Shown here: piece by piece, positions 9,193 through 62,233 of the stretch
Layout: every line of letters starts with the position of its first letter
Numbering within the stretch: the first letter of the stretch is position 1
NCBI GenBank assembly: GCA_024641545.1
Contig: JAHECW010000001.1
Coordinates: 558 to 64,557 of the forward strand
Reading direction: 5' to 3'
From: Acidobacteriota bacterium
Lineage (GTDB): Bacteria > Acidobacteriota > Thermoanaerobaculia > Thermoanaerobaculales > Sulfomarinibacteraceae
Length of the DNA stretch: 64,000 nucleotides
The notes under the pieces: generated by a model
Databases searched by the model: none
Told to the model about the DNA's origin: nothing
The model's input: the letters and a program-made list of their open reading frames with translations, nothing else
Position numbers and translations under genes: made by a program

Positions 9193-9205
9193 AGGGATCC
9201 ATTCC

Positions 9206-11608: not shown

Positions 11609-11692
11609 CAGCGGGAGGTCGACAGACGGCGGACGGGTCTCCCCTGCTCCGCCCCGGCTGTTCGGCTGCCCGCATTGAAGGAGATCGTGTCG

Positions 11693-12499: not shown

Positions 12500-12505
12500 A
12501 ACCAA

Positions 12506-12546
12506 CCGCCCGCCCGTCGATCAGACGCCGGCGGATCGGCGGGCGG
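12506..12546 (+). terminator. GC-rich imperfect hairpin after the SDR gene
   Basis: CCGCCCGCC (12506-12514) pairs with GGCGGGCGG (12538-12546), plus an inner GATC/GATC pairing. No U-run follows. Confidence 0.3.
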
Positions 12547-12592
12547 CTCGGAGATGAAAAGCCGGCAGGTGCTTTTGAGGATTGGAGCCAAA

Positions 12593-14050: not shown

Positions 14051-14301
14051 GATTCCTGCAGTGGCTCAGGTCATCGGCATGTTCCACAAACTGGGCGGCC
14101 TCATCACCAGCCCCGAGAGCATGGATATCGAGGCGTTCAAAGACCGGGAGGATGAAGGTGGTCTCTCTGTCCCAAAATGCGGGCGGAGGGCGCCACCGGT
14201 TGCGGCGGCTATGATGTCCGGAAGGCATCGTGCCGGTCGGTTTTTGATGATCGATGGATGTGACGGGCAGAATGCTCGACGAAAAAGAAGAGGAGATCTT
14301 C

Positions 14302-15384: not shown

Positions 15385-15444
15385 CCGGTCAGCCGACAAC
15401 TTCGGCTCCGCAGTCCCTTCGGAGTCGTTTCGCGGAGGTCTTCG

Positions 15445-16425: not shown

Positions 16426-16491
16426 CGAGCCACCGAGCGCCAGTGCGGTCCGATTCGAAGTCCCCACCCAACGGCGCGTCCGCCGCGCCGA

Positions 16492-17877
16492 TCACTCGCC
16501 GGCAGGCTCGATCGCGACATTCTGCAGCAGGAGACCCTCCACGTGATCGAGGACGCTGCCCCTGCTCACCGCCTTGAAGGAGCTGTCCCGAACCACCAGC
16601 CCACGCACCGGCGCACTCGGGAGTCCGCGGATGAAAAACGCGTACCCCGCCCGGCCCACGGTCAACCGCTCGATGAGGATGTTCCGGACGACCGGCACAA
16701 AGGGGCCGTCGGCACCCTCCTCGTACTGCATGTCGATATCGATGGCCGAACCGGTTTCGCCGATCTCGACGTCGCGCACGAAGACGTTCTCGATCACTCC
16801 TCCGCGCACGGCATTGGTCTTGAGTCGGATCCCTCGATCGAGATCGGGGCTGCTCATTTCGGTCTGCTCGACGAAGACGTCGCGCACGCTGCCGCTGGTC
16901 TCGCTGCCGATGGTCACGCCGCCGTGCCCGGCCCGCATCCGGCAGCCCCGGACCACGATGCGCTCGGAGGGGGCGGCGAGCCGTCGCCCGTCGGCGTTGC
17001 GCCCCGACTTGATGGCGATGCAGTCGTCCCCGGTATCGAAGAGCGAGTCCTCGATCAGGACATCGGTCGAAGATTCCGGATTACAACCGTCGTTGTTGGG
17101 ACCTGAGGAGACGACTCTCACGCCGCGGACGGTGACGTTGTGGGAAAGAACCGGGTGGATGACCCACATCGGAGAATTTCTGATCGTGACGCCCTCGATC
17201 AGAACGTTCTCGCAGCGATAGGTCTGCACGAACGACGGCCGCAGGTAGTGGCCGGCGCCGTAGACCCGCTCGGCGACCGGAACGCCGGTCTCGGCCTGGG
17301 CGAAGAGCCGATCGCGGTCGGGCTTCTGGCTCGCGGGGTGGCCATCGCCCTTCCATGGCCACCAGTGCTGCGGCCCGGCCTGGCCGTCGAGGGTGCCCTT
17401 GCCGGTCACCGCAATGTTCTTCTCGTCGTGGGCGTACACGAGGGGCGAGTAGTTCATCAGCTCGACACCTTCCCAGCGTGTGAAGACGACGGGCAGGTAG
17501 GCGGCAGGATCCTGGAGGAACCGAAGAGTCGCACCGTCCTGAAGGTGGAGGTTGACGTTGGACTTCAGGTGGATGGCGCCGGTGAGATACTCCCCTGCCG
17601 GCACCACCACCCGGCCGCCGCCGGCTGCCGCACAGGCGCTCACGGCGGCCCGGACAGCGGCGGTCGCATCGGTCGTCCCGTCCCCCACGGCGCCGAAATC
17701 GGACAAAGGAAAATCGCGATCGGGAAACGTCGGTGCGCTGATCCCGGCGAGGATGCCGGGCAGACGCTCCCAGGGGTCCGGGGGCGCGGCGGTCTGCCCC
17801 TCGCTGTGGGCGTGGACGCTCAGAAAGGCGGCGACAAGAGCCCCCAGGATCGCTGCGGCGGCAGGTTGTTTCCTCAT
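16492..17877 (-). CDS. Glycoside hydrolase family 28 (second copy), secreted
   Basis: Signal peptide MRKQPAAAAILGALVAAFLSVHA. Motifs DFGAVGDGTTDATAAV, NNDGCNPES, GDDCIAIKS, GHGGVTIGSE, IRLKTN. GGAGGA RBS before ATG 17877. Confidence 0.85.
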   Translation of the reverse strand: MRKQPAAAAILGALVAAFLSVHAHSEGQTAAPPDPWERLPGILAGISAPTFPDRDFPLSDFGAVGDGTTDATAAVRAAVSACAAAGGGRVVVPAGEYLTGAIHLKSNVNLHLQDGATLRFLQDPAAYLPVVFTRWEGVELMNYSPLVYAHDEKNIAVTGKGTLDGQAGPQHWWPWKGDGHPASQKPDRDRLFAQAETGVPVAERVYGAGHYLRPSFVQTYRCENVLIEGVTIRNSPMWVIHPVLSHNVTVRGVRVVSSGPNNDGCNPESSTDVLIEDSLFDTGDDCIAIKSGRNADGRRLAAPSERIVVRGCRMRAGHGGVTIGSETSGSVRDVFVEQTEMSSPDLDRGIRLKTNAVRGGVIENVFVRDVEIGETGSAIDIDMQYEEGADGPFVPVVRNILIERLTVGRAGYAFFIRGLPSAPVRGLVVRDSSFKAVSRGSVLDHVEGLLLQNVAIEPAGE

Positions 17878-18729
17878 CGGAGATCCTCCATCGGCCGGGC
17901 CCGAACGAACGACGACGCCGCTGCGACTGCGGCCGAATCCCGGATGGTGGTTCACGACCCGCGGGAGACCGGCGACCAACACGCCCCGGCGGGGTTCCGC
18001 GCTCCGGCTCCGCGCCCAGGCCTCAGATCCGAGCGCCGTCTCATGCTCTCGATTATAGACAGGGACATCGATCGTCTTGACGACCGGCTCTTCTCGCCGC
18101 CAGGGCCTGCGATGAAGGGTGCCACGTTGACAACCGCTCGTCGCGATGGTGCGCCGCGATGATCCGGTCGATCTCGCCGGAACCGTCGTCGCCTCCCGGC
18201 CTCAACGCTTCCCGGCGCCATCGGAGAGCGATCGTCCCCGCTGGCAAAGCGTGAACCTCCCGCCAGGACCGGCACTTGCATCCTTGTGCCACGACACACC
18301 CTGTGCCCGGAATTCGTGTGTCCTGACACAGGACGCAAGCCCCGCCGACGACCCCCGAACCAGGCCGCTCGTCGAACCGAAGCGAACCGCTGAGACGGAG
18401 GCGATGAGGCGGTTCTGATCCGTCTTCGTGGATCCCTCGATCACCGTCGGCGATCGGCTTTTCTCCGCTGGCACGTTTCTTGAGTCCCACGGGACGAAGC
18501 TTTCAGGCGAAACAAGGCCGCAAAGGGTGCAGATCGGCCGTAGCATGCCGGCCGCTTGGCACCCCGAGTCGGCGCGGCCGCAGGTCCTCCATCCCTGCGG
18601 CAACACCGGAGATCGGCCCCGGTGACTGCGCGGCGCCCTTTGAGGCGTCGAGAGAGGAGGTCATCGATTTCAATACCTGACCGCCCGCAATCGTGAAACC
18701 CATCGATTGAACCAAAGGAGGTCCAAACC

Positions 18730-21839: not shown

Positions 21840-24800
21840 TCAGTCCCTGAGTCCCTTGAGCTCGGTGCGCCGCTTCCACAGCTTGTAGATCGGGGGGTAC
21901 ACCAGGAGTTCGAGCACGAACGAGGTGACCAGGCCGCCGATCATCGGTGCGGCGATGCGTTTCATGACGTCGGCCCCGGCCGAGGTCGACCACATGATCG
22001 GCAGCAAGCCCATGAAAGCGGCCGTCACCGTCATCATCTTGGGCCGAACCCGCTTGACCGCACCGTGGATGATCGCCTCGTCGGCGTCCGCCAGCGTCTT
22101 GAGCAGTCCGCGCTTGCGGTAGTCGTCCCAGGAGAGGTCGAGGAAGAGAAGCATGAACACCCCGGTCTCGGCGTCGAGTCCGAGCAGAGCGATCATCCCG
22201 ACCCAGGCCGCGATGGAGACGTTGTATCCGAGGAAGTGGAACAGCCAGATGGCGCCGACGGCCGAGAATGGCACTGCGAGCATCACAACGGCCGCCTTGA
22301 ACGCCGATCTGGTGTTCAGGTAGAGGAGCAGAAAGATCAGAGCCAGCGTGATCGGCACGATCAGCTTGAGTCGCTCGCGGACGCGCAGCATGTTCTCGTA
22401 CTGACCGGACCACAGCAGCACATATCCGGGCTTGAGCTCGAGTTGCTCCCGCACCGCCCTCTTGGCCTCCTCGACGTAGCCGCCGACGTCGCGGCCGGTG
22501 ATGTCGACGTAGACGTAACCGGCCAGAAATCCATTCTCGTCGCGGAGCATGGCCGGTCCTTGAACGAGCTCGATGTCGGCGAGCTGGGCGAGCGGGACCT
22601 GGGCGCCCGACGGCGTCGCCACCAGCACCCGTCCGAGCCGGCCCACATCGTCGCGCAGCTCGCGCGGATAGCGGATGTTGACCGGGTAGCGCTCACGCCC
22701 CTCGACAGTGGTGGTGACGTTGTCGCCACCGATGGCGCTCATGATCACGTCCTGGACCTGAGACACGGTCAGCCCGTGGCGGGCGAGCTGGTCGCGGCGC
22801 GGGACGATGTCGACGAAAAAGCCGCCGGTCACACGCTCGGCGAACACGCTGCGGGTCCCGGGGATCTCGCGCATGATCGCCTCGAGATGTTCGCCGACGC
22901 GCTGGATCTCCTTGAGATCGGCGCCGAAGACCTTGATGCCGATGGGCGTGCGCACTCCGGTCGTGAGCATGTCGGTGCGGGCCTTGATGGGCATGGTCCA
23001 GGCGTTGGTCACGCCGGGGATGCGGAGGGCGCGGTCCATCTTGTCGACCAGCTCCTCCCAGGAGATGTGATCCGGCCACAGGGGCCGCAGGAGACGTTTG
23101 AGCCAGTCCGGCGCCCATCCCGAGTACCAGCGCGGCTTCGCCTCCCACTCGCTCTCCGGTTTGAGAACGATGGTCGTTTCCATCATCGAGAACGGCGCCG
23201 GATCGGTCGAGGTCGCGGCGCGACCGGCCTTGCCGAACACCCGCTCGACCTCGGCGAACGACTTGATGACCCGATCCTGGGTTTCGAGCAGCTCCCTGGC
23301 CTGTTCCACGGCGATTCCCGGCAGGGTGGTCGGCATGTACAGGATCGTGCCCTCGTTCAAGGGCGGCATGAACTCGGAACCGAGCTTGAAGTAGAACGGG
23401 ACCGACACCGCGACCAGAGCGATCGCGGTCGCGATCACGAGCTTGGGGAAACGGAGCACGAAGCGGCACAGAGGCTCGTAGACCGCAAACAGCAGCCGGC
23501 TGATCGGGTGCTTCTCCTCGGCGTAGTAGGTGCCGACCAGGGTCTTGGTGGCCAGCCAGGACAGGAAGCGCGGCTTGAAGGTGAAGGGGTCCATCCGGGT
23601 GAAGAGCATGCGCATCGCCGGGTCGAGGGTGATGGCGAGGAGCGCTGCCAGGGCCATGGCCAGGTTCTTCGAGATGGCCAGCGGCTTGAACAGCCGGCCT
23701 TCCTGGTCAACCAGGGCGAACACCGGCAGAAACGCCACCGCAATCACCAACAGGGAGAAGAAGACCGAGGGTCCGACCTCCATGAGCGCCTCGAGGCGGA
23801 CCGTGTGAAAGTCCCCCTTGCGTCCGCCGGCCTCCCAGAGGTGGAGCTTGTTGTACGCGTTCTCCACCTCGACGATGGCGCCGTCGACCAGGACGCCGAT
23901 GGAGATGGCGATGCCGGCCAACGACATGATGTTGATCGTGACGCCCATGAAGTACATCGGTATGAAGGCGAGAAGGACCGAGATCGGGATGGTGAGGATC
24001 GGCACCGCGGCCGAGGGGATGTGCCATAAGAAGAGGAGGATGACGAACGCGACGATGATCATCTCGACGGTCAGCTCGTGCTTGAGGGTCTCGATCGCGC
24101 GGTGGATCAGATCCGAGCGGTCGTAGGTGGTGACCACCTCGACCCCTTTGGGCAGGGAGGGCTCGATCTCCCGGAGCCTGTCCTTGACGCGGTCGATCAC
24201 GTTGAGGGCATTCTCACCGTGGCGCATCACCACAATGCCTCCGACGTGATCGCCGAGCCCGTCGAGATCCGAAATCCCACGGCGGATCTCCGGCCCGAGG
24301 CCGACCTGAGCGATGTCCTTGAGGAGCACCGGCACGCCGCCCGGACCGACCTTGACGACGACCTGTTCGAAGTCCTCGATGGCGCGGGCGTAGCCGCGGC
24401 CACGCACCATGAACTCGGTGCCGGCGAACTCGAGAAGCCGCCCGCCGACCTCGTTGTTCGAGGCGCGGACCGCAGCGACCACCATTTCGAGCGGAATCCG
24501 GTAGGCCGCCAGCCGGTTGGGATCGACCGTGACCTGATACTGGCGGACAAACCCACCGATGGAGGCGACCTCCGCCACTCCCGGGACCGACTGGAGGGCG
24601 TAGCCCAGGGTCCAGTCCTGGTAGGAGCGGAGCTGGTCCAGGGAGTGCGTGCCGGAGCGGTCGACGAGGGCGTACTGAAAGACCCAGCCGACGCCCGTGG
24701 CGTCCGGTCCGAGCTCGGTCTCCACCCCGTCGGGGAGCCGCGACTGGATTTTGGAGAGGTACTCCAGCACTCGCGAACGCGCCCAGTACAGGTCCGTACC

Positions 24801-25094
24801 GTCCTGGAAGATGACGTAGACATAGGAAAAGCCGAAGTCTGAGAAGCCGCGGATCGCCTTCACCTTCGGCGCCCCCAGCAACGACGAGATGATCGGGTAG
24901 GTGACCTGGTCCTCGATGATGTCCGGCGAGCGGTCCCAGCGCGAGTAGACGATCACCTGGGTGTCGGAAAGGTCGGGCAGGGCGTCGAGCCGGATCCGCG
25001 CCAGGGTGTTGCCGGCGAAGATGCACAGCGCGGCCACGCCGAGCAGGATCAGCATCCTGTTGTGGGCGGAAAACTCGATGATCCGCCTGATCAT
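21840..25094 (-). CDS. cusA: Heavy-metal efflux RND transporter, CusA/CzcA family
   Basis: 1084 aa. N-terminus MIRRIIEFSAHNRMLILLG...ALPDLSDTQVIVYS..., typical of the HME-RND family. Start overlaps the cusB stop (ATGA). Confidence 0.9.
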   Translation of the reverse strand: MIRRIIEFSAHNRMLILLGVAALCIFAGNTLARIRLDALPDLSDTQVIVYSRWDRSPDIIEDQVTYPIISSLLGAPKVKAIRGFSDFGFSYVYVIFQDGTDLYWARSRVLEYLSKIQSRLPDGVETELGPDATGVGWVFQYALVDRSGTHSLDQLRSYQDWTLGYALQSVPGVAEVASIGGFVRQYQVTVDPNRLAAYRIPLEMVVAAVRASNNEVGGRLLEFAGTEFMVRGRGYARAIEDFEQVVVKVGPGGVPVLLKDIAQVGLGPEIRRGISDLDGLGDHVGGIVVMRHGENALNVIDRVKDRLREIEPSLPKGVEVVTTYDRSDLIHRAIETLKHELTVEMIIVAFVILLFLWHIPSAAVPILTIPISVLLAFIPMYFMGVTINIMSLAGIAISIGVLVDGAIVEVENAYNKLHLWEAGGRKGDFHTVRLEALMEVGPSVFFSLLVIAVAFLPVFALVDQEGRLFKPLAISKNLAMALAALLAITLDPAMRMLFTRMDPFTFKPRFLSWLATKTLVGTYYAEEKHPISRLLFAVYEPLCRFVLRFPKLVIATAIALVAVSVPFYFKLGSEFMPPLNEGTILYMPTTLPGIAVEQARELLETQDRVIKSFAEVERVFGKAGRAATSTDPAPFSMMETTIVLKPESEWEAKPRWYSGWAPDWLKRLLRPLWPDHISWEELVDKMDRALRIPGVTNAWTMPIKARTDMLTTGVRTPIGIKVFGADLKEIQRVGEHLEAIMREIPGTRSVFAERVTGGFFVDIVPRRDQLARHGLTVSQVQDVIMSAIGGDNVTTTVEGRERYPVNIRYPRELRDDVGRLGRVLVATPSGAQVPLAQLADIELVQGPAMLRDENGFLAGYVYVDITGRDVGGYVEEAKRAVREQLELKPGYVLLWSGQYENMLRVRERLKLIVPITLALIFLLLYLNTRSAFKAAVVMLAVPFSAVGAIWLFHFLGYNVSIAAWVGMIALLGLDAETGVFMLLFLDLSWDDYRKRGLLKTLADADEAIIHGAVKRVRPKMMTVTAAFMGLLPIMWSTSAGADVMKRIAAPMIGGLVTSFVLELLVYPPIYKLWKRRTELKGLRD

Positions 25095-26641
25095 CGGTCG
25101 CCTCCGCGCTGGTGGCCTCCCGAGCCCATGCCGGCAATGGCCGCCCGGAGCCCCGACTCGGAATCGAGGAGGAAGTTGGCGCGGATCACGACCTGTTCAC
25201 CTTCGGAGAGCCCGGACAGGACCAGGACCTTGCCCCGACCTCGGACGCCGACCTCAACCTGGCGCGGAACGAACGTGTCCGCTGACCGACGCACGAACAC
25301 CACCTGCCGTTCGCCGGTGTCCATGAGCGCTGACGCGGGTATCACGATCCCCTCGCTGTCCTCGACCGCGAGCTCGACGTCGGCGAACATGCCGGGCTTC
25401 AGGACCAGGCCGGGGTTGGCGAACTCGAAGCGGACCTTGAGGGTGCGCGTCGAAGGGTCGAGGGTCGGGTAGATGAACGCGATGCGGCCGGAGAGACGCA
25501 CACCCGGGTCGTAGGGCAGGCGGACCGTAGCCTGTTCGCCCAATCGCAGGGCGGCCGCCTCGTACTCGTAGAAGTCGGCCTCGACCCACAGTCTCGAGAG
25601 ATCGGTGATCGTGAACAGCTCCTTGCCCGGCTCGACCTGTTGCCCCTCGAAGACGTCCTTGGCGGTGACGTAGCCGGAGACCGGAGCGAGCAGGGTGACC
25701 GCCCGCTGCACGACGCCGCTCCTCTCGAGCTCGGCGACGAAGCTCGCCGGAACATCGAAGAGCTCGAGGCGGCGGCGGGCGGCCTTGAGCAGGTCCTCGG
25801 CGCCGCTGCGAACCTCGGGCAGCTCGGACGCTGCGAATCGGGCCGCGGTCTCCCGCACCCGGAGCAGCTCTTCCTGGGTCGCGACCAGCTCTTGGGAGTA
25901 GATCGAGAGGATCGGCTCGCCCTGTTGCACCAGCTGCCCGGTGAAGCTGACGAAGAGTTTCTCGACCCAACCCGGGATCTTGGTGTGGACGTGGCGGATC
26001 CGGGTCTCGTCCGGCACCACGCTGCCGACGGTGCGCACGCTTCGGGCGAGTCGCTCGCGGACCGCCGGCGCCGTCTGCACCCCCGCGAGGAGCAGCCCCC
26101 CGGGCGAAACCTCGACCGTTGCCAGCCCGGGCACCGCGCCTGCCGCGGCCGTCTGCCCGTCGGCAAAGACCGGGAGGAAGTCCATGCCCATCTGGTCCTG
26201 GGCCGGCACCGGCGAGGTGATGGTCGGGTCCATCGGGCTGCGGTAGTAAAGCACCTTGCGTTCACCCGGAGCCGCGGCATGACCCGCCCGATCCCCCGCC
26301 GCAGCGGGGGTGGCGGAGGCCGGCGCCGGCATGGCGTCGCCGGTGGCGACCAGCTTCATCCCGCATTTCGAGCATCTACCGGGCGTGTCCGATGTCACTT
26401 CCGGGTGCATCGGGCAGACGTACGCCGGAACGGACGTCGGGGCTGTCCGGGTCTCGACCGGCACCAGGCGCATGCCGCAGATCGGGCAGTCGCCGGGCCG
26501 GTCCGATAGAAACGTCGGGTGCATCGGGCAGTGGTAGGTTGCATCCGATTCGGCCTTGTCAGCACAGGCTGCGGTGAGCAACACGGCCAGCACACCGAGC
26601 ATGACGGCGGCCGTCCAGCAGACTCTGCGCATCGTGCCCAT
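25091..26641 (-). CDS. cusB: Efflux RND periplasmic adaptor (CusB-like) with two N-terminal heavy-metal-binding modules
   Basis: YHCPMHPTFLSDRPGDCPICGMRLVP and YVCPMHPEVTSDTPGRCSKCGMKLV, followed by a membrane-fusion-protein core (VTAKDVFEGQQVEPGKELFTI...). Confidence 0.85.
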   Translation of the reverse strand: MGTMRRVCWTAAVMLGVLAVLLTAACADKAESDATYHCPMHPTFLSDRPGDCPICGMRLVPVETRTAPTSVPAYVCPMHPEVTSDTPGRCSKCGMKLVATGDAMPAPASATPAAAGDRAGHAAAPGERKVLYYRSPMDPTITSPVPAQDQMGMDFLPVFADGQTAAAGAVPGLATVEVSPGGLLLAGVQTAPAVRERLARSVRTVGSVVPDETRIRHVHTKIPGWVEKLFVSFTGQLVQQGEPILSIYSQELVATQEELLRVRETAARFAASELPEVRSGAEDLLKAARRRLELFDVPASFVAELERSGVVQRAVTLLAPVSGYVTAKDVFEGQQVEPGKELFTITDLSRLWVEADFYEYEAAALRLGEQATVRLPYDPGVRLSGRIAFIYPTLDPSTRTLKVRFEFANPGLVLKPGMFADVELAVEDSEGIVIPASALMDTGERQVVFVRRSADTFVPRQVEVGVRGRGKVLVLSGLSEGEQVVIRANFLLDSESGLRAAIAGMGSGGHQRGGDR

Positions 26642-26642
26642 T

Positions 26643-27935
26643 TCACTCCTCCGATCCAGATCCGGCTCCTGATTCAGTCTCCGTCTCCACCGCCAGGGCC
26701 TGCAGCTCGGCCCACACCGTGTAGCGGTCGGCCTGGCGCCGAGCCAGCTCGACCCGCGCCTCGATCCACAGCTCGAAGTCCTCGATCACGGTCGAGAAGT
26801 CGCCTCTGCCGGTGAGGTAGGAGGATCGGGCCGCGTCAACAGCAGCGCTCGTCTGGGGCACGATGGCCTCTCGGTAGCGCACGATCTGCAGCTCGGCCCG
26901 TTGCCAGTCGGCTTCCAGCCGGGCGGCCTCGGAACGAGCGACCGCTTCGGCCTCGCGGAGCTCGGCACGGGCCAGCTTGAGCTCGTGCTCGGCCGCACGA
27001 ATCATCGGTTCCTGTTTGGTTCGACGCCACAGCGGCCACTCCAGACCGAAGCTCAGCGTCAGCACCGGTTCGAGCCCACCGCGCAGGCCGAGACCGGCGC
27101 CCGTCAAGAAATCCGGCTTGAGGTCGAGCCGGGCGACGTCGAGCCGCTTCTCCGCCGCGGCGACGGCCGAGCGGGCGATCGTGATCTCGGTCGAAGCGGC
27201 CAGCGCCGCCTGCTCCCACGGGAGGGGCGGGGCTTCTACCGGCGGCAGGGCCCGCACCTCACCGAGAGGCTGCCGACCCGGGCGGTCGAGCAGACGGTTG
27301 AGACCCGCAACCAGGAGCGCTCGCTCGGCGGTCAGGTCATCGGCCCTCTCCGCCAACCGAGACACCTCGAGCATCGCCTTGACCACCGCCTCCTGCTCCG
27401 TCCCGCCGACCCCGTAGCGGATGACGGCGGTCTCGGCGAGGAGGTCGAGGAGCTCCCGCGCGGAGTCGAGCTCAGCGCGTTCCCGGTCGAGGATGAAGAC
27501 CCGCGCGTAGAGGGTGCGGACCTCGACCACCAGCCGGCGCCGGACCCGCTCCAGCTCGTCGGCGCGGACGGCGACGACGGCCTGGGCCGACTGCCGCCGC
27601 GCCTCCCGCTTTCCCGGGTAGGGCAGGCTCTGGCGCACCTGGGGACCGATCATGGACATTTCCATGCTCCCCACGGTGAATCGCGGGAAACCGGCGTTCT
27701 GGAGCACGAGCTCGACCATCGGGTCGGGCAGCGCGCCGGCCGGCGCGACCATCTCTCTCGACGCCGCGAGCCGTTCCTCGACCGCCTCGATGGACGGCGA
27801 GCGATCGAGGGCCAGAGCGACCAGTTCCCCCACCGGGGGCGCCGGCTCGCAGGTCTCGCCGGCGGACGCGATCGAGGCAATGAGGCAGGCGCCGACGGCC
27901 AACGGTAACGACCAGCGGTGCCGAGCGATCATCAA
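26643..27935 (-). CDS. TolC-family outer membrane efflux protein (CusC-like)
   Basis: 430 aa. Signal peptide, long coiled-coil-rich repeats, and first position in the operon with cusBA. Confidence 0.8.
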   Translation of the reverse strand: MMIARHRWSLPLAVGACLIASIASAGETCEPAPPVGELVALALDRSPSIEAVEERLAASREMVAPAGALPDPMVELVLQNAGFPRFTVGSMEMSMIGPQVRQSLPYPGKREARRQSAQAVVAVRADELERVRRRLVVEVRTLYARVFILDRERAELDSARELLDLLAETAVIRYGVGGTEQEAVVKAMLEVSRLAERADDLTAERALLVAGLNRLLDRPGRQPLGEVRALPPVEAPPLPWEQAALAASTEITIARSAVAAAEKRLDVARLDLKPDFLTGAGLGLRGGLEPVLTLSFGLEWPLWRRTKQEPMIRAAEHELKLARAELREAEAVARSEAARLEADWQRAELQIVRYREAIVPQTSAAVDAARSSYLTGRGDFSTVIEDFELWIEARVELARRQADRYTVWAELQALAVETETESGAGSGSEE

Positions 27936-55011: not shown

Positions 55012-55763
55012 TGAAACGGGAGGCATCCATGCAACGTCACCTGAAAGCACTCCCACTCCTCGGCGCGCTCTTCGTGGCGTGCTCGTCGCCCCCACCCTCT
55101 CCGGTGGACGAGATCGTCAACTCGAACATCGCCGCCCGCGGGGGAATCGAGGCGATCCAGGCGCTGCGGTCGATCCGCGCGACCGGGACCGCAACAGCAG
55201 GCGGCGGTCGGATCGCGAAGGTGATCCAGGAGATCAAGCGGCCCGGTTGCTACCGCCTCGAGTTCGACTCGCAGGGCACAACCGCGGTCTTTGCGCACGA
55301 CGGCCAAATCGGCTGGCAGGTCGCGCCCATGCAGGGCATCTTCGAGCCCCAACCCGTCACCCCCGAAAACGACGCCGAGGCGGGTATCGACGAGCGCGAT
55401 ATCGAGGGCCCGCTCGTCAACTGGCGTGAGAAGGGGCACACGGTCGAGCTCGTCGGTCGCGAGACCCTTCCCGGCGGCGAAGCCGACAAGCTCAAGGTGA
55501 CCCTCGCCGATGGCGGAATCCGCTACGAGTGGGTCGATGTCGCATCGCACCAGGTGGTCCGCACCGCCAAGACGGAAGTCATCGGAGGCCGGTCTCTGCA
55601 CATGGAAACCTCCTTTTCGGACTTTCGAAATGAAGACGGCCTGGTCTTCCCGCACCTCATCGAGACCGACGTCACGGACCGGCCCGAAGTCATCAGGATC
55701 GTCGTCGAGTCAATCGAGCTCAATCCCGACATCGACGACGCGCGGTTCCGGCTTCCCGAGTAG
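55008..55763 (+). CDS. LolA-like / outer-membrane lipoprotein-sorting-fold lipoprotein
   Basis: ATGATGA coupling to the upstream gene. Lipobox LGALFVAC. The rest is a beta-rich sequence resembling the LolA/DUF4292 fold. Confidence 0.55.
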   Translation: MMKREASMQRHLKALPLLGALFVACSSPPPSPVDEIVNSNIAARGGIEAIQALRSIRATGTATAGGGRIAKVIQEIKRPGCYRLEFDSQGTTAVFAHDGQIGWQVAPMQGIFEPQPVTPENDAEAGIDERDIEGPLVNWREKGHTVELVGRETLPGGEADKLKVTLADGGIRYEWVDVASHQVVRTAKTEVIGGRSLHMETSFSDFRNEDGLVFPHLIETDVTDRPEVIRIVVESIELNPDIDDARFRLPE

Positions 55764-55839
55764 CGCATCCGCCCCGGCGACGCCGCCGAGCGGGTTTCCG
55801 ATTCAGGGTGAATTGCCCGTATTCGAACGGGAGGTCGTG

Positions 55840-56484
55840 GTGAAGCGAGGACCCGGGTTTGTCGCAATCGCGTTCATCTGGACCGCGGCGATCGTCGGCG
55901 GGTCCACGGCCGACTCCACCGGAACGACGGGTTCTCGGATCGACGAAGGCGGATCCAGCCCCGGATACGTCGTGATTCTCGTCGACGGCAGCGTGGTCCC
56001 GGCAAAAACCAAGCCCGTCAGCGCCTTCGGATCGCTCCGGTACGTCGACATGACGGGCCGCACGCGCGTTCTCGGGGTCTCGCAGGTCGATCTCGAGGCC
56101 ACCCGGAGGAACAACGCCGATGTCCCCGACAACCCGTCGGCGGGTACTTTCAGCGTCCTCGGCGGCGCCGGATTCTCCCAACCCGAACCGGTGGCGCCGA
56201 TCGAGGAGGACGAAGCCGATGATGCACCGGCGCCGCCGAAGTCCGTCACCGTCTACTCCGCGACCTGGTGCCCGTACTGCAAACCGTTGAAGCGGTACCT
56301 CACCGACAACAACATCCCGGCGACCGTCATCGAGGTCGACGCCCTGCCCGAGGGTCAGCAGGCGCAGCACCGGGCCGCGATGAAAAGGTTAACCGGCCGC
56401 GTCGCCTTCCCGACGGTGGTCATCGACGGGGAAGCCAAGACCGGGTTCTCGCCTTCCTGGATCCAGTCAAGGCTCAAGCGCTGA
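55840..56484 (+). CDS. Membrane-anchored glutaredoxin-like protein
   Basis: GGGAGG RBS before GTG 55840. TM segment GFVAIAFIWTAAIVGG. C-terminal VTVYSATWCPYCKPLKRYL...FPTVVIDGE is a Grx/NrdH fold with CPYC. Confidence 0.6.
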   Translation: MKRGPGFVAIAFIWTAAIVGGSTADSTGTTGSRIDEGGSSPGYVVILVDGSVVPAKTKPVSAFGSLRYVDMTGRTRVLGVSQVDLEATRRNNADVPDNPSAGTFSVLGGAGFSQPEPVAPIEEDEADDAPAPPKSVTVYSATWCPYCKPLKRYLTDNNIPATVIEVDALPEGQQAQHRAAMKRLTGRVAFPTVVIDGEAKTGFSPSWIQSRLKR

Positions 56485-56501: not shown

Positions 56502-56530
56502 TTGACAACGAGTCGTCCGGAACCTATTGT
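56502..56530 (+). promoter_or_regulatory. Sigma70-like promoter TTGACA-17 nt-TATTGT, giving a near-leaderless transcript
   Basis: TTGACA at 56502-56507 and TATTGT at 56525-56530. ATG 56542 follows 11 nt later with no SD sequence. Confidence 0.45.
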
Positions 56531-56541
56531 ATATATCGTAT

Positions 56542-57609
56542 ATGAACAGTAATGCACTTGCACTGCTTCTCCACCTGGTCGCCGATGACCCGGAACCGCT
56601 GCGCGACCAGATCGCGCGTCAGCTCCACGGCCGCATCGTCCGCGGCGAGCTCGCGGCCGGCGACGCTCTTCCATCTCACCGCCAGCTGGCCCGGCAGCAC
56701 CGGGTGGCGCCGTCGACGGTCGAGGCCGCATACGAGCTCCTGATTTCAGAGGGCCTGCTCACCGGCACCGCCTCGGAAGAAGCCCGGGTGGCGGCCATCG
56801 GTCCCGACCGCAGGCGCGATCTGGTGGAACGCCTCCAGCTCGATGAACTGGTGGCGCAGGAGCTCGGGCGTCGTGAACTGGAGATGGCCCGCGACGTCCA
56901 GCGCCGCCTGCTGCCGCCGTCCGAACTCAGTGGCCCCGGCTGGGAGGTCGCCTCCCGCTGCGTACCGGCGCGAGTGGTCGCCGGCGACTTCTACGATGTC
57001 CTGCAACGCGCCGACGGCAGCGTTGATGTCGTGGTCGCCGATGTCGCCGGCAAGGGTTTCGCCGCCAGTCTCATCATGGCCTCGGTCAAGGCGATGCTGC
57101 CGTTCGTCACCTCCAAGGGCAGCGTCGCCGAGTCACTCACCGCTCTCAACCGCCGGCTGGTCCCAGAGCTCGGTCGCGGCGAATTCGTCGCCCTGACCCT
57201 GGCCCGCTACCGTCCCGCCGACCGGTCGGTCGAGTTGGCCAACGCCGGGGCGCCGGATCCCTATCTGGTACGGCGCGGCTGCGCCCCGCGACCGTTGTCG
57301 GCGCCCGGTCCGCGGCTGCCGCTCGGCATCCGCCCGGAGGTGGCCTATTCATCGCGCACGGTGGAGGTCGGCGAGGATGACCGGCTGCTGCTGATCACCG
57401 ACGGCCTGCCCGAGGCGCGCGACGCCGATGGCGACCCGCTGGGATACCAGGCTTTGGAGTCGCTGTTCGCCGATGAGCCGTCGACCGACGAACCTTCGAC
57501 GTGGCTCACCGGGCTCTTCGAACGGGTCCAGCTGCGGACCGGCCGGCTTCCGGAAGACGACTGGACCGCGGCGATGCTGGTACCCAGGCCAGCCGGGGGG
57601 GCGCCGTGA
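56542..57609 (+). CDS. Fusion protein: GntR-type winged-HTH domain + PP2C/SpoIIE-family serine phosphatase domain
   Basis: N-terminus PLRDQIARQLHGRIVRGELAAGDALPSHRQLARQHRVAPSTVEAAYELLISEGLL (GntR). C-terminus ARDVQRRLLP, VAGDFYDV, VVADVAGKGFAASL, LITDGLPEA, EDDWTAAML (SpoIIE/PP2C metal-binding motifs). Confidence 0.8.
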   Translation: MNSNALALLLHLVADDPEPLRDQIARQLHGRIVRGELAAGDALPSHRQLARQHRVAPSTVEAAYELLISEGLLTGTASEEARVAAIGPDRRRDLVERLQLDELVAQELGRRELEMARDVQRRLLPPSELSGPGWEVASRCVPARVVAGDFYDVLQRADGSVDVVVADVAGKGFAASLIMASVKAMLPFVTSKGSVAESLTALNRRLVPELGRGEFVALTLARYRPADRSVELANAGAPDPYLVRRGCAPRPLSAPGPRLPLGIRPEVAYSSRTVEVGEDDRLLLITDGLPEARDADGDPLGYQALESLFADEPSTDEPSTWLTGLFERVQLRTGRLPEDDWTAAMLVPRPAGGAP

Positions 57610-57992
57610 TACTCAACCTGTCGGAACTCTCCGACGAACCGCTGCACGCCCAGATGTCGCGCCAGATCCGCGCGAAGATCCTCACCGAGGACCTTCCCGA
57701 CGGCGAGGCCCTGCCCTCGATCCGCCGTCTGGCCAAGGAACAGCGGGTCAGCGTCATCACCGTGCAGCGGGCGTACGACGACCTCGAGCGCGAAGGTCTC
57801 CTCCAGTCCCGCAGGGGCAAGGGGTTCTGGGTGGCGCCCATGGCCGAGGAAAGGAAACAGAAGATGGCCGAAGAACGGTTTGCAGACGCGCTGGGCCGGC
57901 TTGTGGCACACGCGGTGGCCGAAGGTCTGAGCGAGGCCGAGATGCGGCGGATTCTGGACGAACTTCTACGGGAAGGACGATCCAATGGCTGA
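57606..57992 (+). CDS. GntR-family transcriptional regulator, YtrA-like short form
   Basis: PLHAQMSRQIRAKILTEDLPDGEALPSIRRLAKEQRVSVITVQRAYDDLEREGLLQSRRGKGFWV. GTGA overlap with the upstream stop. Followed by an ABC ATPase, as in ytrAB. Confidence 0.8.
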   Translation: MILNLSELSDEPLHAQMSRQIRAKILTEDLPDGEALPSIRRLAKEQRVSVITVQRAYDDLEREGLLQSRRGKGFWVAPMAEERKQKMAEERFADALGRLVAHAVAEGLSEAEMRRILDELLREGRSNG

Positions 57993-58896
57993 TCATCGAC
58001 CGGATGCATCCCCCGCCGCCAGCCTGAGCGGTCTGACCAAACGCTTTCCCGGGTTCCAACTTGGCCCGCTCGACCTCGTTCTGGAGCCCGGCACCGTGCT
58101 CGCTCTGGTGGGGCCCAACGGCGCCGGGAAGACCACGACCCTCAACTGCATGGCCGGTCTGGTCGTGCCCGATGAAGGCGGCACCGAGGTCTTCGGCGCC
58201 CCGGTCCGACCGGATCGGGCCGAATATCGCCGCGACATCGGCTATGTCGGCGAGGAAAACGGGTTCTTCCAGGGTTGGACCGCCGCCCGAAACCTGAAAT
58301 TCCTGTCCGAACTGCTCCCCGGATGGTCGAAAGACCGGGCGAACAGGTTTGTCCAGCGGTTTGCGCTGCCCCTGGACAAACCGGTGAACAAGCTGTCGCG
58401 AGGCAACAAGACCAAGCTCGCTTTGGTGGCGGCGCTGGCGCACGGTCCGCGGCTGCTCCTGCTCGACGAACCCACCGCCGGTCTGGACCCGGTGGTCCGC
58501 TCGGAGGTCCTGGACGTGCTGTGGGAGATCACCGAGGACGGCGAGCACGCGGTGCTCTACTCAACCCACGTCCTGTCCGACATCAGCCGCCTCGCCGACG
58601 AACTGGCGTTCCTGCGCGACGGCCGGCTGGTGCTGCGCACCGGCCGGGATGAGCTGAGCGAGAGCTGGCGGCGGGTTTCCTTCCGGCTCGCGAACGAGGG
58701 CATCGAACTCACCGGCGTCGTCGAACACCGCCGGGTGCGGGCCGAACACCAGATCATCACTCGGGAAGCCGAGACGACGCTGCAGCAACTCGCCGAGCTC
58801 GGCGCCGAGGCGGTCGAGGTTTCGCGGATGACCGTGGACGAGATCGCGGTCCAAATCCTCAAGGAGGGTCACCATGTGGCACGCGCTGAAAGCTGA
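57985..58896 (+). CDS. ABC transporter ATP-binding protein
   Basis: Walker A GPNGAGKTT, signature LSRGNKTKL, Walker B LLLLDEPTAGLD. The start overlaps the upstream stop. Confidence 0.85.
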   Translation: MADHRPDASPAASLSGLTKRFPGFQLGPLDLVLEPGTVLALVGPNGAGKTTTLNCMAGLVVPDEGGTEVFGAPVRPDRAEYRRDIGYVGEENGFFQGWTAARNLKFLSELLPGWSKDRANRFVQRFALPLDKPVNKLSRGNKTKLALVAALAHGPRLLLLDEPTAGLDPVVRSEVLDVLWEITEDGEHAVLYSTHVLSDISRLADELAFLRDGRLVLRTGRDELSESWRRVSFRLANEGIELTGVVEHRRVRAEHQIITREAETTLQQLAELGAEAVEVSRMTVDEIAVQILKEGHHVARAES

Positions 58897-59512
58897 ACTC
58901 GCCTATTTCCGGCCGTGGCTGCTCGGCGGCCTCGGCATCGCCGCCGGCGTCGTCCTGCTGCTGAGCGTGCTGATGCGGTTGGCGAACGAAGGGGAGGGAC
59001 CGCCGGGTTTTGTCGTGGCGATGTTTCCGATCATGGCAGGCATGGTGGTTTCCTTCATCGCCGGGGGCCTTCGCGTCGAGGAACGGCGAGCCCGCCTGCT
59101 GTTGTCGGGGACCATCACCCCCCGCCAGCTTGCATGGGTGAACGTCCTGCTGCCGGTGTGCTTTGTCGCCTTGAGCGCCCTCGCGCTCGCGCCCCTGCTG
59201 GGCCTGGCCACTCTGGTGGCCGGTAAGCTCGAACCCTCAGCCCTGCGGATCGCCTTCGGTTTCATGGTTCAGTTCTGGGCGTACGCGCAGCTGGGACCGT
59301 TGGCGCAGGAATCGACGGCGGCCCGCCGCGAGCGCCGCGGCCGTGCCGCTCTCGTCGGCTGGGCGTTCTTCGCCGGCGTGATCCTGGTCCTTGCGGGATC
59401 CCAGTTCTTCCTGCATTCCGTTCACGTCCAGCTGGCCCAGGTGACGGTCGTGATCGCGACCATGGTGGTCGCCGCAACCCTCTATCAGGGCCGAACCGAC
59501 TTCACGCGCTGA
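58874..59512 (+). CDS. Polytopic membrane protein (probable ABC-2-type permease partner)
   Basis: AAGGAGG RBS. About 6 hydrophobic segments. Overlaps the ATPase gene by 23 nt. Confidence 0.6.
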   Translation: MWHALKAELAYFRPWLLGGLGIAAGVVLLLSVLMRLANEGEGPPGFVVAMFPIMAGMVVSFIAGGLRVEERRARLLLSGTITPRQLAWVNVLLPVCFVALSALALAPLLGLATLVAGKLEPSALRIAFGFMVQFWAYAQLGPLAQESTAARRERRGRAALVGWAFFAGVILVLAGSQFFLHSVHVQLAQVTVVIATMVVAATLYQGRTDFTR

Positions 59513-60569
59513 CCGAAACGGGCGGTGCCGGAACCGAATCCGGGTCGTCCGACAGCTTGGTGTACCTCGGTTGCATGCCCGGGGCGACCGCCACGACGAT
59601 GGTGCCGGGGTGGCTGTTCGCGCCGCCGACCAGCCCTTCGTAGAACCCGTCGGTGCTCAGGACTTCGCTGCCGGATTCCCTCAGCGTCTCGACGGCGACG
59701 GGGTGGGGATAGAGCGTCCGGGTGAGCGAAAGGGCGCCGTGCGTCACGCTGCTGACCTCCTGCTTGCTCGAGAGAATCGCGAGGGAGGGTGACATCCGCT
59801 CATAGACGTCGAGCGGAGCGCTGTGCATGCTGCCGTGGTGCGACACCTTGAGAACCGAACAGTTCAGGAGGTTGACGACCTTCTTGACCAACGGGTCGTG
59901 CTTGCTAGTCCGTTCCACGTGGGGGTACTCCTCGGCGATCTGGGCCCAGTTGTCGAACTCCGCGTCGGCGCCGAGGATCACCACCGAATCTCCCGCGTCG
60001 CGGAGGATCTCGGGATCTTCCCGGTCACGGTATCGAAGCGATTCGACGACGACCACGTCGTCCGCGCAGTTCTCGAGCCGAAGCACGATGGAGGCGTTGT
60101 TCATGTCGATGCCGTACGTCGCGTAGCGGTTGCGCAGCGCCACCGATGGACCGAGCGCGGTGATCCGCAGTGTTCCGTAGTAGAACTCCATCCCGGAGGA
60201 GATCCGCCGCATCGGGATCTTCTCCCGGTGGATCGTCTCGAGAATGTTGAGGTAGGTCGTGGTCTTGTGTCTGAATCCGCTGTCCCAGAACTCGCGCGGT
60301 CTCGTCAACGGGTCCTCGAGGAGCGTCCGGATCCCGGCGACGTGGTCGAGGTGAGGGTGGGTCGCGCAGATGAAGGCGACCCCGGCGAAGGGGCGGACGA
60401 GTTGAAGGGCCTTGATGTAGTCGAGCATCTTCGCGCCCTTGTAGCAGTCGACGATCCCGAGAAGGTTCTCGCCGTCCGCCGTCGTCGGCAACTCGAGAAG
60501 GATCGCATCGCCGAAGCCCACGTTCATCACGTGGACGACGAGCTCGGAAGGCTGGATGGCGGCCGGCAT
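59502..60569 (-). CDS. Stand-alone ComEC/Rec2-type metallo-beta-lactamase-fold hydrolase (probable nuclease)
   Basis: VMNVGFGDAILLE, ATHPHLDHVAG (HxHxDH), LKVSHHGS. No signal peptide or TM segment. Confidence 0.8.
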   Translation of the reverse strand: MPAAIQPSELVVHVMNVGFGDAILLELPTTADGENLLGIVDCYKGAKMLDYIKALQLVRPFAGVAFICATHPHLDHVAGIRTLLEDPLTRPREFWDSGFRHKTTTYLNILETIHREKIPMRRISSGMEFYYGTLRITALGPSVALRNRYATYGIDMNNASIVLRLENCADDVVVVESLRYRDREDPEILRDAGDSVVILGADAEFDNWAQIAEEYPHVERTSKHDPLVKKVVNLLNCSVLKVSHHGSMHSAPLDVYERMSPSLAILSSKQEVSSVTHGALSLTRTLYPHPVAVETLRESGSEVLSTDGFYEGLVGGANSHPGTIVVAVAPGMQPRYTKLSDDPDSVPAPPVSVSA

Positions 60570-61199: not shown

Positions 61200-61234
61200 T
61201 TGCGGTTGACAGAAGGTTGCGGTTGACATATGGT
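61200..61234 (+). promoter_or_regulatory. Tandem direct repeats TTGCGGTTGACA x2 forming a promoter/operator for the TA operon
   Basis: Repeats at 61200-61211 and 61217-61228. The first TTGACA (61206-61211) is 17 nt upstream of TATGGT (61229-61234). Confidence 0.5.
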
Positions 61235-61250
61235 TGCCAGCGAGGAGAAC

Positions 61251-61694
61251 ATGGGGATTCAAACCGTCGAATTGACCGAGCTCGCCCCGAGCGAGGCCGC
61301 GCGCGCCCTGCTTCGCAGCGCCGACGAGGCGTGGTTGTCGGAACTCCAACGATCGCTCGATCGGCACCGCGCCCGCGCCGGTTTCGACCGCATTCTCGCG
61401 GTGTGGAATCTGAGCCAGACCGATGCGGCCGCGCTCTTCGGCGTCACCCGGCAGGCGATCGCGAAATGGCGGGCTCGAGGCGTGCCGGCCGGCCGGATCG
61501 AAGCGGTGGCCGATCTCTCGTCCGCCACCGATCTGCTCGTCCGCCACCTCAAACGCGACCGCATTCCGGCGGTCGTGCGACGCGGGTCGGCGCAACTCGG
61601 CGGTCTGTCGCTGCTCGACCTGGTGCATCAGGGCCGCAGCCGTGATGTCCTCCTCGCCTGCCGGAGGATGTTCCGTTTCGGAGACGCACATTAG
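61251..61694 (+). CDS. Xre-type antitoxin with DUF2384-like C-terminus (ParS/MbcA family)
   Basis: HTH SQTDAAALFGVTRQAIAKWRARG. C-terminus LGGLSLLDLVHQGRSRDVLLACRRMFRFG. GAGGAG RBS. An alternative ATG lies at 61230. Confidence 0.75.
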   Translation: MGIQTVELTELAPSEAARALLRSADEAWLSELQRSLDRHRARAGFDRILAVWNLSQTDAAALFGVTRQAIAKWRARGVPAGRIEAVADLSSATDLLVRHLKRDRIPAVVRRGSAQLGGLSLLDLVHQGRSRDVLLACRRMFRFGDAH

Positions 61695-62233
61695 TGCGCA
61701 GCGAGATCCTCCCCGAGGGCCGCACCTGGTACCGGATCGCTGAGACCGACTGGGTCGATCCTCTCGACCCGACCTTTGCCGCGGTCCTCGGCGGCCGCTG
61801 GAATCCACCCGGCAGCCACCCGACCCTCTATCTCAATGAAGACCGGATCACCGCCCGACTCAATCTCCGGCAGTTCATCGCCGGCTGGCCCTACGATCCT
61901 GAAGACCTTGTCGACGAAACCGGTCCGGTCCTGGTCCACGCAACCTTACCCGCCCGGCAACGCGTCGCGGACGTCCACAGCCGACCGGGGGTGGCGGCGG
62001 TAGGCCTGCCCCCCACCTACCCGCTCGACACCGACGGCCGGCCCGTCGGGCACGCGGTGTGCCAATCCATCGGGTCGACGGCGAAATCGGCCGGGCTGAG
62101 AGGCGTCCGGGCGCGATCCGCCCGTGCGCCCGAAGGCGGGGGTCTCGAACTCGCCTGGTTCCCCGCCGGCCGGGGATCCCGCGCACGAGTCCGGAAGATC
62201 CAGTCCTTCGAGGCGTGGTACTGGGGGAGCTAG
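61694..62233 (+). CDS. RES-domain toxin (ParT/MbcT family NAD+-targeting enzyme)
   Basis: GGRWNPPGSHPTLYL, RGVRARSA and LELAWF match the R-E-S signature. The GTG start overlaps the antitoxin stop (TAGTG). Confidence 0.8.
   Translation: MRSEILPEGRTWYRIAETDWVDPLDPTFAAVLGGRWNPPGSHPTLYLNEDRITARLNLRQFIAGWPYDPEDLVDETGPVLVHATLPARQRVADVHSRPGVAAVGLPPTYPLDTDGRPVGHAVCQSIGSTAKSAGLRGVRARSARAPEGGGLELAWFPAGRGSRARVRKIQSFEAWYWGS

Follow-up and report, generated by a model that had tools for sequence, protein, structure and literature searches.

Introduction

YtrA-type repressors are short GntR regulators for which no ligand pocket is known (PMC6746942). Repressor/ABC modules of this type are very common and their signal input is mostly unknown, PmtR of Staphylococcus aureus being the one worked example: it responds to the peptide substrate of its own pump (PMC5080381). 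Here, we describe a cassette of four same-strand genes, g1 to g4, whose neighbouring ends overlap, at positions 56542-59512 (+) of a 64,000-nt stretch of DNA (hereafter the window; G+C 65.7%). The window comes from an Acidobacteriota bacterium (Sulfomarinibacteraceae; assembly GCA_024641545.1, contig JAHECW010000001.1, forward strand 558-64,557). The first gene of the cassette encodes a GntR-type winged helix-turn-helix (wHTH) domain joined to a SpoIIE/RsbU-type PP2C domain, and the following ones a short repressor, an ABC ATPase and a permease. In our reading, the locus would be an ordinary drug/peptide exporter operon of sediment Acidobacteria, of the ABC-2 type and repressed by its own YtrA/PmtR-type regulator, to which a phosphatase gene has been added at the front. 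We give this explanation, taken as a whole, a probability of roughly one half.

On the exporter side, two described systems are close to the cassette. Like the S. aureus PmtR-PmtABCD system, it has a repressor gene inside the operon, overlapping genes and a putative operator over the predicted transcript start (PMC5080381); the best NCBIfam matches of g2 and g3 are PmtR and PmtA, and the predicted fold of g4 resembles that of PmtD, with weak E-values. Unlike PmtABCD, which comprises two ATPases and two permeases, it has a single one of each, contains an additional phosphatase gene, belongs to another phylum and scores far below the model cut-offs. In the Bacillus subtilis YtrA-ytrGABCDEF system, a pocket-less short GntR protein likewise autorepresses an ABC operon through a long palindrome with distant half-sites (~24 bp in the subfamily; PMC6746942). 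The inducing signal of B. subtilis YtrA is still unknown (PMC12772383). The ytr operon has no phosphatase gene, whereas the cassette has g1.

On the phosphatase side, it has been proposed that the dimer of an N-terminal domain controls a crossing linker, and that this linker acts in turn on the switch helices of the PPM domain and on its binding of metal (PMC12143880). A term search of that text gave receiver, HAMP, PAS, GAF and RsbU N-domains as regulatory domains and no DNA-binding domain. RsbU and RsbP of B. subtilis and RssB of Pseudomonas aeruginosa resemble g1 in their PF07228 motifs and in the long helix that runs into the PP2C domain. Their N-domains are a four-helix bundle, a PAS or a receiver domain, whereas that of g1 is a GntR/YtrA wHTH. 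In addition, unlike these three proteins, g1 is accompanied by no nearby STAS, anti-sigma kinase or sigma factor gene and sits in an ABC exporter operon. An N-terminal GntR wHTH followed by a larger C-domain is also found in BusR (wHTH, coiled coil, RCK_C; PMC8517857) and in MocR/GabR (wHTH, aminotransferase fold). In those regulators the wHTH is the output and the C-domain the sensor; in g1, on the other hand, it is the wHTH that decays, next to a C-domain that remains an intact enzyme, the roles being apparently reversed.

Each half of the cassette, taken alone, is of a known kind: the exporter operon is of the YtrA/PmtR type, and the phosphatase is an RsbU/RssB-type PPM enzyme whose N-domain can be exchanged. 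What is new is a wHTH serving as the N-terminal module of a PPM phosphatase, the making of that wHTH from the operon's own repressor, and the promoter-proximal position of the fusion gene. The initial annotation of this stretch did not recognize the arrangement as described; we found no paper in the literature that describes a GntR-wHTH::PP2C/YtrA/ABC combination, and databases give automatic names only.

Organization and spread of the cassette

Gene g1 (56542-57609, +) encodes a 355-residue protein in which a degenerate YtrA-type wHTH is followed by a long helix and a SpoIIE/RsbU-type PP2C domain, as judged from Pfam, homologues, AlphaFold2 (AF2) and Foldseek. It is followed by g2 (57606-57992, +; 128 aa, GTG start), a YtrA-subfamily GntR repressor according to Pfam, NCBIfam and structure alignments, by g3 (57985-58896, +; 303 aa), an ABC ATPase of the DrrA/PmtA-like (ABC-2 exporter) type from Pfam and NCBIfam, and by g4 (58874-59512, +; 212 aa), tentatively assigned as an ABC-2-type permease from its AF2 model and a fold search. 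The GTG of g2 lies inside the g1 stop (GTGA), g2 and g3 overlap at ATGGCTGA, and g3 and g4 overlap by 23 nt. These coordinates agree with the tight operon proposed in the initial annotation.

Upstream of g1, a consensus scan predicts a -35 hexamer TTGACA (56502-56507, +) and, after a 17-nt spacer, a -10-like hexamer TATTGT (56525-56530, +). TTGACA-17-TATTGT, the promoter given in the initial annotation, is the sole sigma-70-like match in 4 kb, with 0.2 expected, and its position is conserved in related loci. Most relatives carry TACTGT as the -10-like hexamer. Transcription is predicted to start ~4-5 nt 5' of the g1 ATG, which would give a near-leaderless mRNA. This near absence of a leader, already pointed out, is accounted for by a palindrome, described below, that reaches from the -10 region over the predicted transcript start and into the first g1 codons. 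The gene just 5' of the promoter (55510-56484) ends with a glutaredoxin domain (aa 246-308 of the listed open reading frame, ORF); its long N-terminal part looks over-extended, the true start being probably further downstream. It was placed outside the cassette because upstream neighbours vary among the other loci.

The fusion is not confined to the window. The best 120 of 1381 g1 protein matches are 72-99% identical to g1, nearly all 355 aa long and all two-domain; they come from Acidobacteria/Thermoanaerobaculales metagenome-assembled genomes (MAGs) and bear the automatic names "RsbU", "SpoIIE family" or "hypothetical". Among 1.8 billion representatives, searched exhaustively and without a profile, there are 22 full-length two-domain clusters at 50% identity. 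An artefact of gene calling or chimeric assembly was rejected, given the independent assemblies, the two-domain ~355-aa architecture of these best 120 matches and the 22 clusters. When one genome per species was scanned, the full fusion was found at ~49 loci, the other matches being PP2C-only. The initial annotation had suggested examining its taxonomic spread together with the gene neighbourhoods: nearly all of these species-level loci belong to Acidobacteriota (Sulfomarinibacteraceae, Multivoradales, Thermoanaerobaculaceae), the exceptions being a few unclassified records and one Acidimicrobiia label. The Thermoanaerobaculia are seen here almost wholly as MAGs.

As for the neighbourhoods, g2 and g3 lie directly 3' of g1 at every locus with enough DNA, and so does g4 where similarity is detectable, while the genes flanking the cassette differ between loci. 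The overlaps are conserved as well: -4 nt between g1 and g2 at 30/42 loci, -4 or -8 nt between g2 and g3, and -23 nt between g3 and g4 at 26/33. Two distant fusions, P0260 (30% identity, on a contig of ~52% G+C) and P0239 (38%), have the same gene order. Conserved at ~49 loci and in far relatives, with flanks that change and overlaps that persist, the cassette is real, old and selected as a unit.

The predicted 25-bp operator and the probable repressor g2

A 25-bp imperfect palindrome, ATTGTATATATCGTATATGAACAGT (56526-56550), was identified as a putative YtrA-type operator from upstream alignments and a motif scan. It is single-copy in the window, with 0 expected by chance. The family consensus is ACTGTATATAyCGTATATrnACAGT, and that of the alignment upstream of g1 is ACTGTATATAyCGTATATGAACAGT, from which the window copy departs by one mismatch. 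The fusion loci fall into two clades. In the clade of the window, the palindrome overlaps the -10 region and takes in both the predicted transcript start and the g1 codons ATG AAC AGT; the corresponding M-N-S are the only conserved residues at the extreme N-terminus of g1. In the sister clade (g1 45-55% identical), the palindrome is followed by a GAGGA-type ribosome-binding site and the start codon lies seven residues further in. The palindrome is thus kept 5' of g1 in both clades, and also in a relative of 30% identity (L208). Upstream DNA alignments show that the distance from the -35 hexamer to the operator is constant across the window-clade loci and PP2C-less relatives.

This layout is the one expected for the subfamily. 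The B. subtilis YtrA operator, AGTGTA-N13-TACACT, has the same layout as the window palindrome with different bases. Bacterial YtrA-type operators are ~24-bp palindromes with distant half-sites lying over the promoter (PMC6746942), and PmtR protects a site over its own transcript start (PMC5080381).

Several sister-clade promoters (L039 at ~3490-3530, L043, L045 and L047) read GAAAC-N16/17-CGTA, with CGTA at the palindrome centre, and others read TTGACAAAAC, overlapping both motif types. We take GAAAC-N16/17-CGTA to resemble promoters of extracytoplasmic function (ECF), sigma-W-like factors, and some sister-clade lineages may be under envelope-stress sigma control.

The exact core of the operator, CTGTATATANCGTATAT, was also sought in public metagenome contigs, where it occurs at no fewer than 120 loci. 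Among the matches listed, the motif lies 20-70 nt 5' of a g2-like short GntR gene in 21 of 120 (hidden Markov model E-values 1e-10 to 1e-35); 3 of the 21 are fusion operons, and 18 have no PP2C. In these 18 listed loci, on contigs of 45-68% G+C, the operator is followed by a g2-like gene, a g3-like ABC ATPase gene and, where the contig reaches, the gene of a ~220-aa permease. In many of them, a near-perfect palindrome, ACTGTATATATACGATATATACAGT, stands behind TTGACA-17-TACTGT. The other ~99 of the 120 listed matches, on low-GC contigs and with no g2-like gene within 150 nt, were taken as chance occurrences and left unused.

The g2 protein and the PP2C-less repressors share SVIT[TV][KQ]RAY as recognition helix and, in LPSxR, an invariant Arg; the g2 recognition helix is 86-92% identical throughout. 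Because the palindrome precedes PP2C-less operons and because this helix is almost invariant in g2 and its relatives, the operator most likely belongs to the g2-type repressor, and g2 is its predicted binder. The comparison points to an ancestral unit made of the promoter and the 25-bp palindromic operator followed by g2, g3 and g4; in the class Thermoanaerobaculia, g1 is inserted between the operator and g2.

The g2 protein itself has the features of such a binder. It matches PF00392 (GntR) with an E-value of 1.5e-14 over profile positions 4-64 of 64, and its wing, SRRGKGFWV, is canonical. It aligns end to end with the PmtR and Rv1152 models, well below the equivalog cut-offs (the best NCBIfam match, PmtR, gives 76.7 bits vs a cut-off of 200), and over its full length with ~125-aa YtrA-type structures (3neu, 3by6, 4ham, 3ic7, 6sbs). 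Residue R40, equivalent to Arg42 of YtrASa, is invariant in 45/45 g2 sequences and in 18/18 PP2C-less relatives, and the HTH is 90% identical within the window clade and 86% between clades. By sequence, g2 combines the traits of the YtrA subfamily: a full wHTH, a short C-terminal part within 128 aa, a long palindrome at its own promoter and a co-encoded transporter.

The fusion protein g1

The fusion claimed for g1 in the initial annotation is borne out by Pfam: PF00392 is matched with an E-value of 1.8e-10 (aa 21-74, profile positions 2-55 of 64 only, the wing part being unmatched) and PF07228 (SpoIIE) with 1.3e-36 (aa 158-343, profile 2-186 of 192). Three segments can be distinguished: a wHTH copied from g2 (aa 8-87, 56563-56802, +), of which the wing (aa 73-87) is degenerate and variable, assigned from g2 identity, Pfam and AF2; a continuous helix that carries the fusion joint (aa 88-126, 56803-56919, +), assigned from AF2 and alignments to g2, membrane-anchored PP2Cs and RssB; and the PP2C catalytic domain (aa 131-346, 56932-57579, +), from PF07228, Foldseek and motifs. 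The AlphaFold monomer model (mean predicted local distance difference test, pLDDT, of 77) comprises a confident wHTH (aa 20-83), a continuous helix (aa 88-123) and the PP2C domain. The wHTH is made of three helices and two strands with pLDDT 90-96 over aa 20-90.

The two regulators of the operon are paralogous, as proposed. Residues 8-110 of g1 are 37% identical to g2 (E-value 9e-17), and a g1 profile aligns with YtrASa (6sbs) over aa 14-112, i.e. through helix alpha4. Hence, the N-terminal part of the g1 helix 88-126 is homologous to helix alpha4 of g2/YtrA. Toward its C-terminus (aa ~103-126, ELGRRELEMARDVQRRLLPP), the helix is homologous to the linker that precedes the PP2C domain in P. aeruginosa RssB and in a group of membrane-anchored PP2Cs. 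From aa ~93-103 onward, the closest relatives of g1 are these ~400-aa proteins (among them P0128, P0134 and P0140), 50-57% identical to g1 over linker and PP2C domain (aa ~100-346). They share the pre-catalytic helix (...KELELARSIQRRLLPP) but carry four predicted membrane helices, with no Pfam domain, in place of the wHTH. Unlike g1, they stand alone with no conserved neighbours, and they are also uncharacterised. RssB (3eq2) aligns with g1 by sequence from aa 85-89, that is, from the linker onward. These alignments argue that g1 arose from a duplicate of the g2 wHTH and the start of its dimerisation helix, spliced within the helix to a PP2C linker and catalytic domain; the membrane-anchored PP2Cs are the likely donors of the C-terminal two thirds. 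In the basal family members L039 and P0122, g1 is much closer to g2, with a near-canonical wing and a basic recognition helix.

The segments of g1 have evolved at different rates. Identity within the window clade and between clades is 90% and 59% for the C-terminal part of the linker, the most conserved segment, 76% and 55% for the PP2C domain, 77% and 45% for the HTH, and 48% and 28% for the wing, the most variable segment. The RxGxGxxV wing is absent in g1, where it reads GTASEEARV. The recognition helix is APSTVEAAY vs SVITVQRAY in g2, E61-A62 of g1 standing in the place of Q54-R55 of g2, and the mean net charge of HTH and wing is -1.6 in g1 vs +3.4 in g2. Thus, of the "clear" wHTH initially announced, the fold stands, predicted with pLDDT above 90, whereas the wing and the basic DNA-contact residues are degenerate. 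Judged from these comparisons, g1 keeps its enzyme intact, and the copied wHTH, though it retains its fold, is losing the features with which DNA is read.

This bears on the initial proposal of a DNA-bound phosphatase. On this view, the wHTH would tether g1 to the promoter, whether or not g2 is also there, and g1 would dephosphorylate DNA-bound g2 or another promoter-bound protein, so that a Ser/Thr phosphorylation state would switch repression of the ABC module. The intact and confidently predicted wHTH fold, the invariance of R47, R51 and R54 in the window clade, the translational coupling of g1 and g2 in most loci and the g2-like wing and helix of L039 and P0122 would all fit this proposal; post-translational control of YtrA-type repressors has been raised as a possibility (PMC6746942). 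On the other hand, the operator co-varies with the recognition helix of g2 and not with that of g1, and occurs in operons without g1. The wing of g1 is lost, its charge is negative and HTH and wing are its least conserved, fast-evolving parts. R47, the equivalent of the DNA-contacting Arg42 of YtrASa, is replaced by H or Q in most sister-clade members. No second conserved DNA motif that could serve g1 was found in the upstream alignments, nor any meaningful internal palindrome. Finally, no Ser/Thr gained in g2 specifically of fusion operons stands out, save a weak signal at S18, and no kinase is linked to the cassette. Taken together, these points make a DNA-bound phosphatase unlikely.

In two species representatives, g1 is seemingly interrupted while g2-g4 are intact: in L041 the g1 match covers aa 66-255 only, and in L048 aa 15-199. 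The interruptions may come from frameshifts in MAGs assembled from long reads, or g1 may really be decaying there.

The PP2C domain

The PP2C domain retains the motifs reported initially: GDFYD (148-152), DVAGKG (167-172), TDG (286-288) and DDWT (339-342). In the form GD[FL][YFH]D, DVAGKG, [ST]DG and DD[WRC]T, they are present in 40/40 orthologues and in two far relatives (30-38% identity), and D149/D152, D167 and G170, D287 and G288, and D339/D340 are invariant throughout this set. They align with GDFVD, DVSGHG and SDG of RssB and with GDWFD, DVVGHG and TDG of Rv1364c. Foldseek matches the domain with a probability of 1.0 to RssB, SiaA (TM-score 0.78 on the target), Rv1364c, SpoIIE and RsbX. 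The best match by both sequence and fold, linker included, is P. aeruginosa RssB (3eq2/3f7a), in which a regulatory domain is connected through a crossing helical linker to the PP2C domain. We infer that the g1 protein dimerises and is active as a Ser/Thr phosphatase that depends on Mn/Mg.

The same residues bear on two other explanations of g1. Pseudo-phosphatases are not known to keep their metal-binding motifs invariant. This speaks against a PP2C domain that, like that of Escherichia coli RssB, would act without catalysis as sensor or adaptor, joined to a functional transcription factor; g1 would in that case be a second repressor that senses a metal or ligand. GntR regulators do carry enzyme-fold effector domains, and g1 matches MocR/GabR models; RssB-type PP2C domains can also be adaptors (PMC3877760). 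However, the four metal motifs of g1 are invariant across clades down to 30% identity, and the features that decay are the DNA-binding ones, which renders this explanation highly improbable.

Alternatively, g1 could be an anti-repressor: mixed complexes with g2, formed through alpha4 or the wHTH, would titrate or destabilise the g2 dimer on DNA, and the PP2C domain would supply regulated dimerisation and no chemistry on g2. The paralogy of g1 and g2 reaches into the dimerisation helix, g1 is always directly upstream of g2, and the 4-nt overlap suggests co-production in fixed proportion. Such a role would not account for the invariant catalytic residues, which argue that chemistry matters, and the C-terminal helices of g2 are only weakly similar to g1 helix 88-102, the two diverging independently. 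We regard the anti-repressor as quite unlikely.

The predicted exporter genes g3 and g4

The ATPase g3 matches ABC_tran with an E-value of 3.8e-28 and carries a ~70-aa C-terminal extension. In NCBIfam, it scores 173 bits against PmtA (cut-off 350) and 147 against DrrA (cut-off 312), so that by sequence it ranks as a relative of PmtA/DrrA and not as an equivalog of either.

The permease g4 has no Pfam match and belongs to a family of 399 "hypothetical" proteins. Its AF2 model (pLDDT 88.8) shows an N-terminal amphipathic helix and six transmembrane helices. The best folds are NosY (7znq/7o0y) and PmtD (6xjh), with TM-scores of 0.55-0.59, a mycobacterial efflux pump and ABCG5/8; E-values are weak (0.06-0.6), and TM-scores overall range from 0.5 to 0.59 with probabilities of 0.84-1.0. 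The g4 model thus resembles type V/ABC-2 exporter permeases.

The protein ends with a basic tail, GRTDFTR (aa 206-212, window 59492-59512). The pattern R[RT]xFT[RK] is kept in both clades though the rest of g4 is less than 30% identical, and orthologue tails (L025-L049) read RRRDFTK, RRTQFTR and RRRSF. In contrast, the four readable PP2C-less permeases end with RRDL, RREL, EKEL and ARDF, without the Thr-Arg/Lys. The tail is a possible phospho-acceptor or docking site, which we regard as a weak lead to the substrate of g1.

Membership in an anti-phage defence system was also considered and rejected: with PADLOC defence models, g1, g2 and g4 were unmatched and g3 gave generic ABC/AAA matches only, which amounts to nothing beyond generic ATPase similarity. 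A gene of the metallo-beta-lactamase fold (59502-60569, -; weak Pfam matches below cut-off) is convergent with g4, the coding ends overlapping by 11 nt, and no terminator-like site was found between the two.

Proposed mechanism

In the reading that we favour, a self-repressed exporter operon with an acquired phosphatase, the palindrome would be occupied by g2 dimers, which would silence the whole set of four genes and, in the window clade, also occlude the g1 start codon. The repressor-derived N-domain of g1 would no longer read the operator. It would instead be a regulatory or dimerisation input that sets the conformation of the linker and switch helix, a role comparable to that of the N-domains of RsbU, RsbP and P. 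aeruginosa RssB. Because this domain descends from a repressor, it would answer the same cue that frees g2, which could lie in the pump substrate, in the state of g2 or in that of the transporter. Upon derepression, the pump would be made and the phosphatase switched on, acting on some phospho-Ser/Thr protein.

The signalling part of this scheme is more tentative. It is conceivable, though on the unlikely side, that the g1 phosphatase takes its input from the state of the YtrA system (pump substrate, g2 or operator DNA) and turns the occupancy or load of the exporter module into a Ser/Thr phospho-signal or, conversely, that g2, g3 or the Thr tail of g4 is under phospho-control.

The only metatranscriptomes from the same sediment samples contained nothing of the locus, just cross-matches to the Walker A region. 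Several points weigh against the proposed scheme. The large ORFs of the 64-kb window include no gene for a STAS protein, an anti-sigma kinase, an FHA protein or a Hanks kinase, and none was found next to the cassette at other loci. In the monomer prediction, the linker through which the N-domain would act has a pLDDT of 55-70. A cue shared with g2 is what the N-domain most plausibly answers, and descent from g2 is the sole basis for that proposal. Moreover, with R47, R51 and R54 invariant and an HTH as conserved as that of the window clade (77%), g1 may there retain some DNA binding, perhaps at another site.

The cassette joins two questions, the signal input of YtrA-type repressors and the control of PPM phosphatases by exchangeable N-domains through a dimeric helical linker. 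If the copied domain still senses the repressor's cue, the cassette would offer a compact, testable case of a transcription-factor domain turned sensor and a handle on phosphorylation signalling in Thermoanaerobaculia. If g1 is gated by the state of the YtrA system, it would be the first case of a wHTH domain controlling a PPM phosphatase and would give a first concrete answer to how pocket-less YtrA-type repressors connect to signals. Otherwise, the cassette would still be a clean, dated example of domain exaptation.

Signalling partners

A partner-switching module would have a STAS and an anti-sigma kinase gene nearby. As the initial annotation had observed, neither accompanies the cassette: in addition to the window ORFs, the annotated neighbourhoods of L001-L004 and L209 contain no STAS substrate or anti-sigma kinase.

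A Pkinase-TPR gene lies 2-3 genes from the cassette in L001 and L002. Linkage to a Hanks kinase was rejected as coincidence, since, by tblastn on flanks of up to 6-8 kb, such a gene is present at only ~6 of the ~45 fusion loci and the window has none. The neighbourhoods of the four-transmembrane PP2Cs were also set aside as a clue to the substrate, the contigs being short or the neighbours unrelated.

A different association is seen in Pyrinomonadaceae. In many genomes (L058-L083), PP2C-only relatives of g1 (30-35% identity, ~383 aa) lie ~140 nt 3' of an ABC ATPase gene (27% identity to g3), as in L060 (4731-5426 and 5566-6717), and a Hanks-type kinase is often present within 6 kb upstream. 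This arrangement is a second, independent PP2C-ABC linkage in Acidobacteriota.

Other features of the window

Downstream of the cassette, a RES-Xre toxin-antitoxin pair consists of an Xre-type HTH gene (61230-61694) that overlaps a RES gene (61694-62233; PF08808, E-value 1.3e-09) by 1 nt. At the other end of the window, a pectin/uronate utilisation cluster (434-17982) includes genes for a TRAP DctP protein, a LacI regulator, a TonB-dependent receptor, two GH28 enzymes, a DUF4861-GH88 protein and KduI, together with two short-chain dehydrogenases/reductases, a 6-phosphogluconate dehydrogenase, a PfkB kinase and an aldo-keto reductase. Between them, a CusCBA-like heavy-metal RND efflux operon (21840-27935, -) encodes an AcrB-family pump, an outer-membrane factor and a membrane-fusion protein that carries two metal-binding HMBD repeats.

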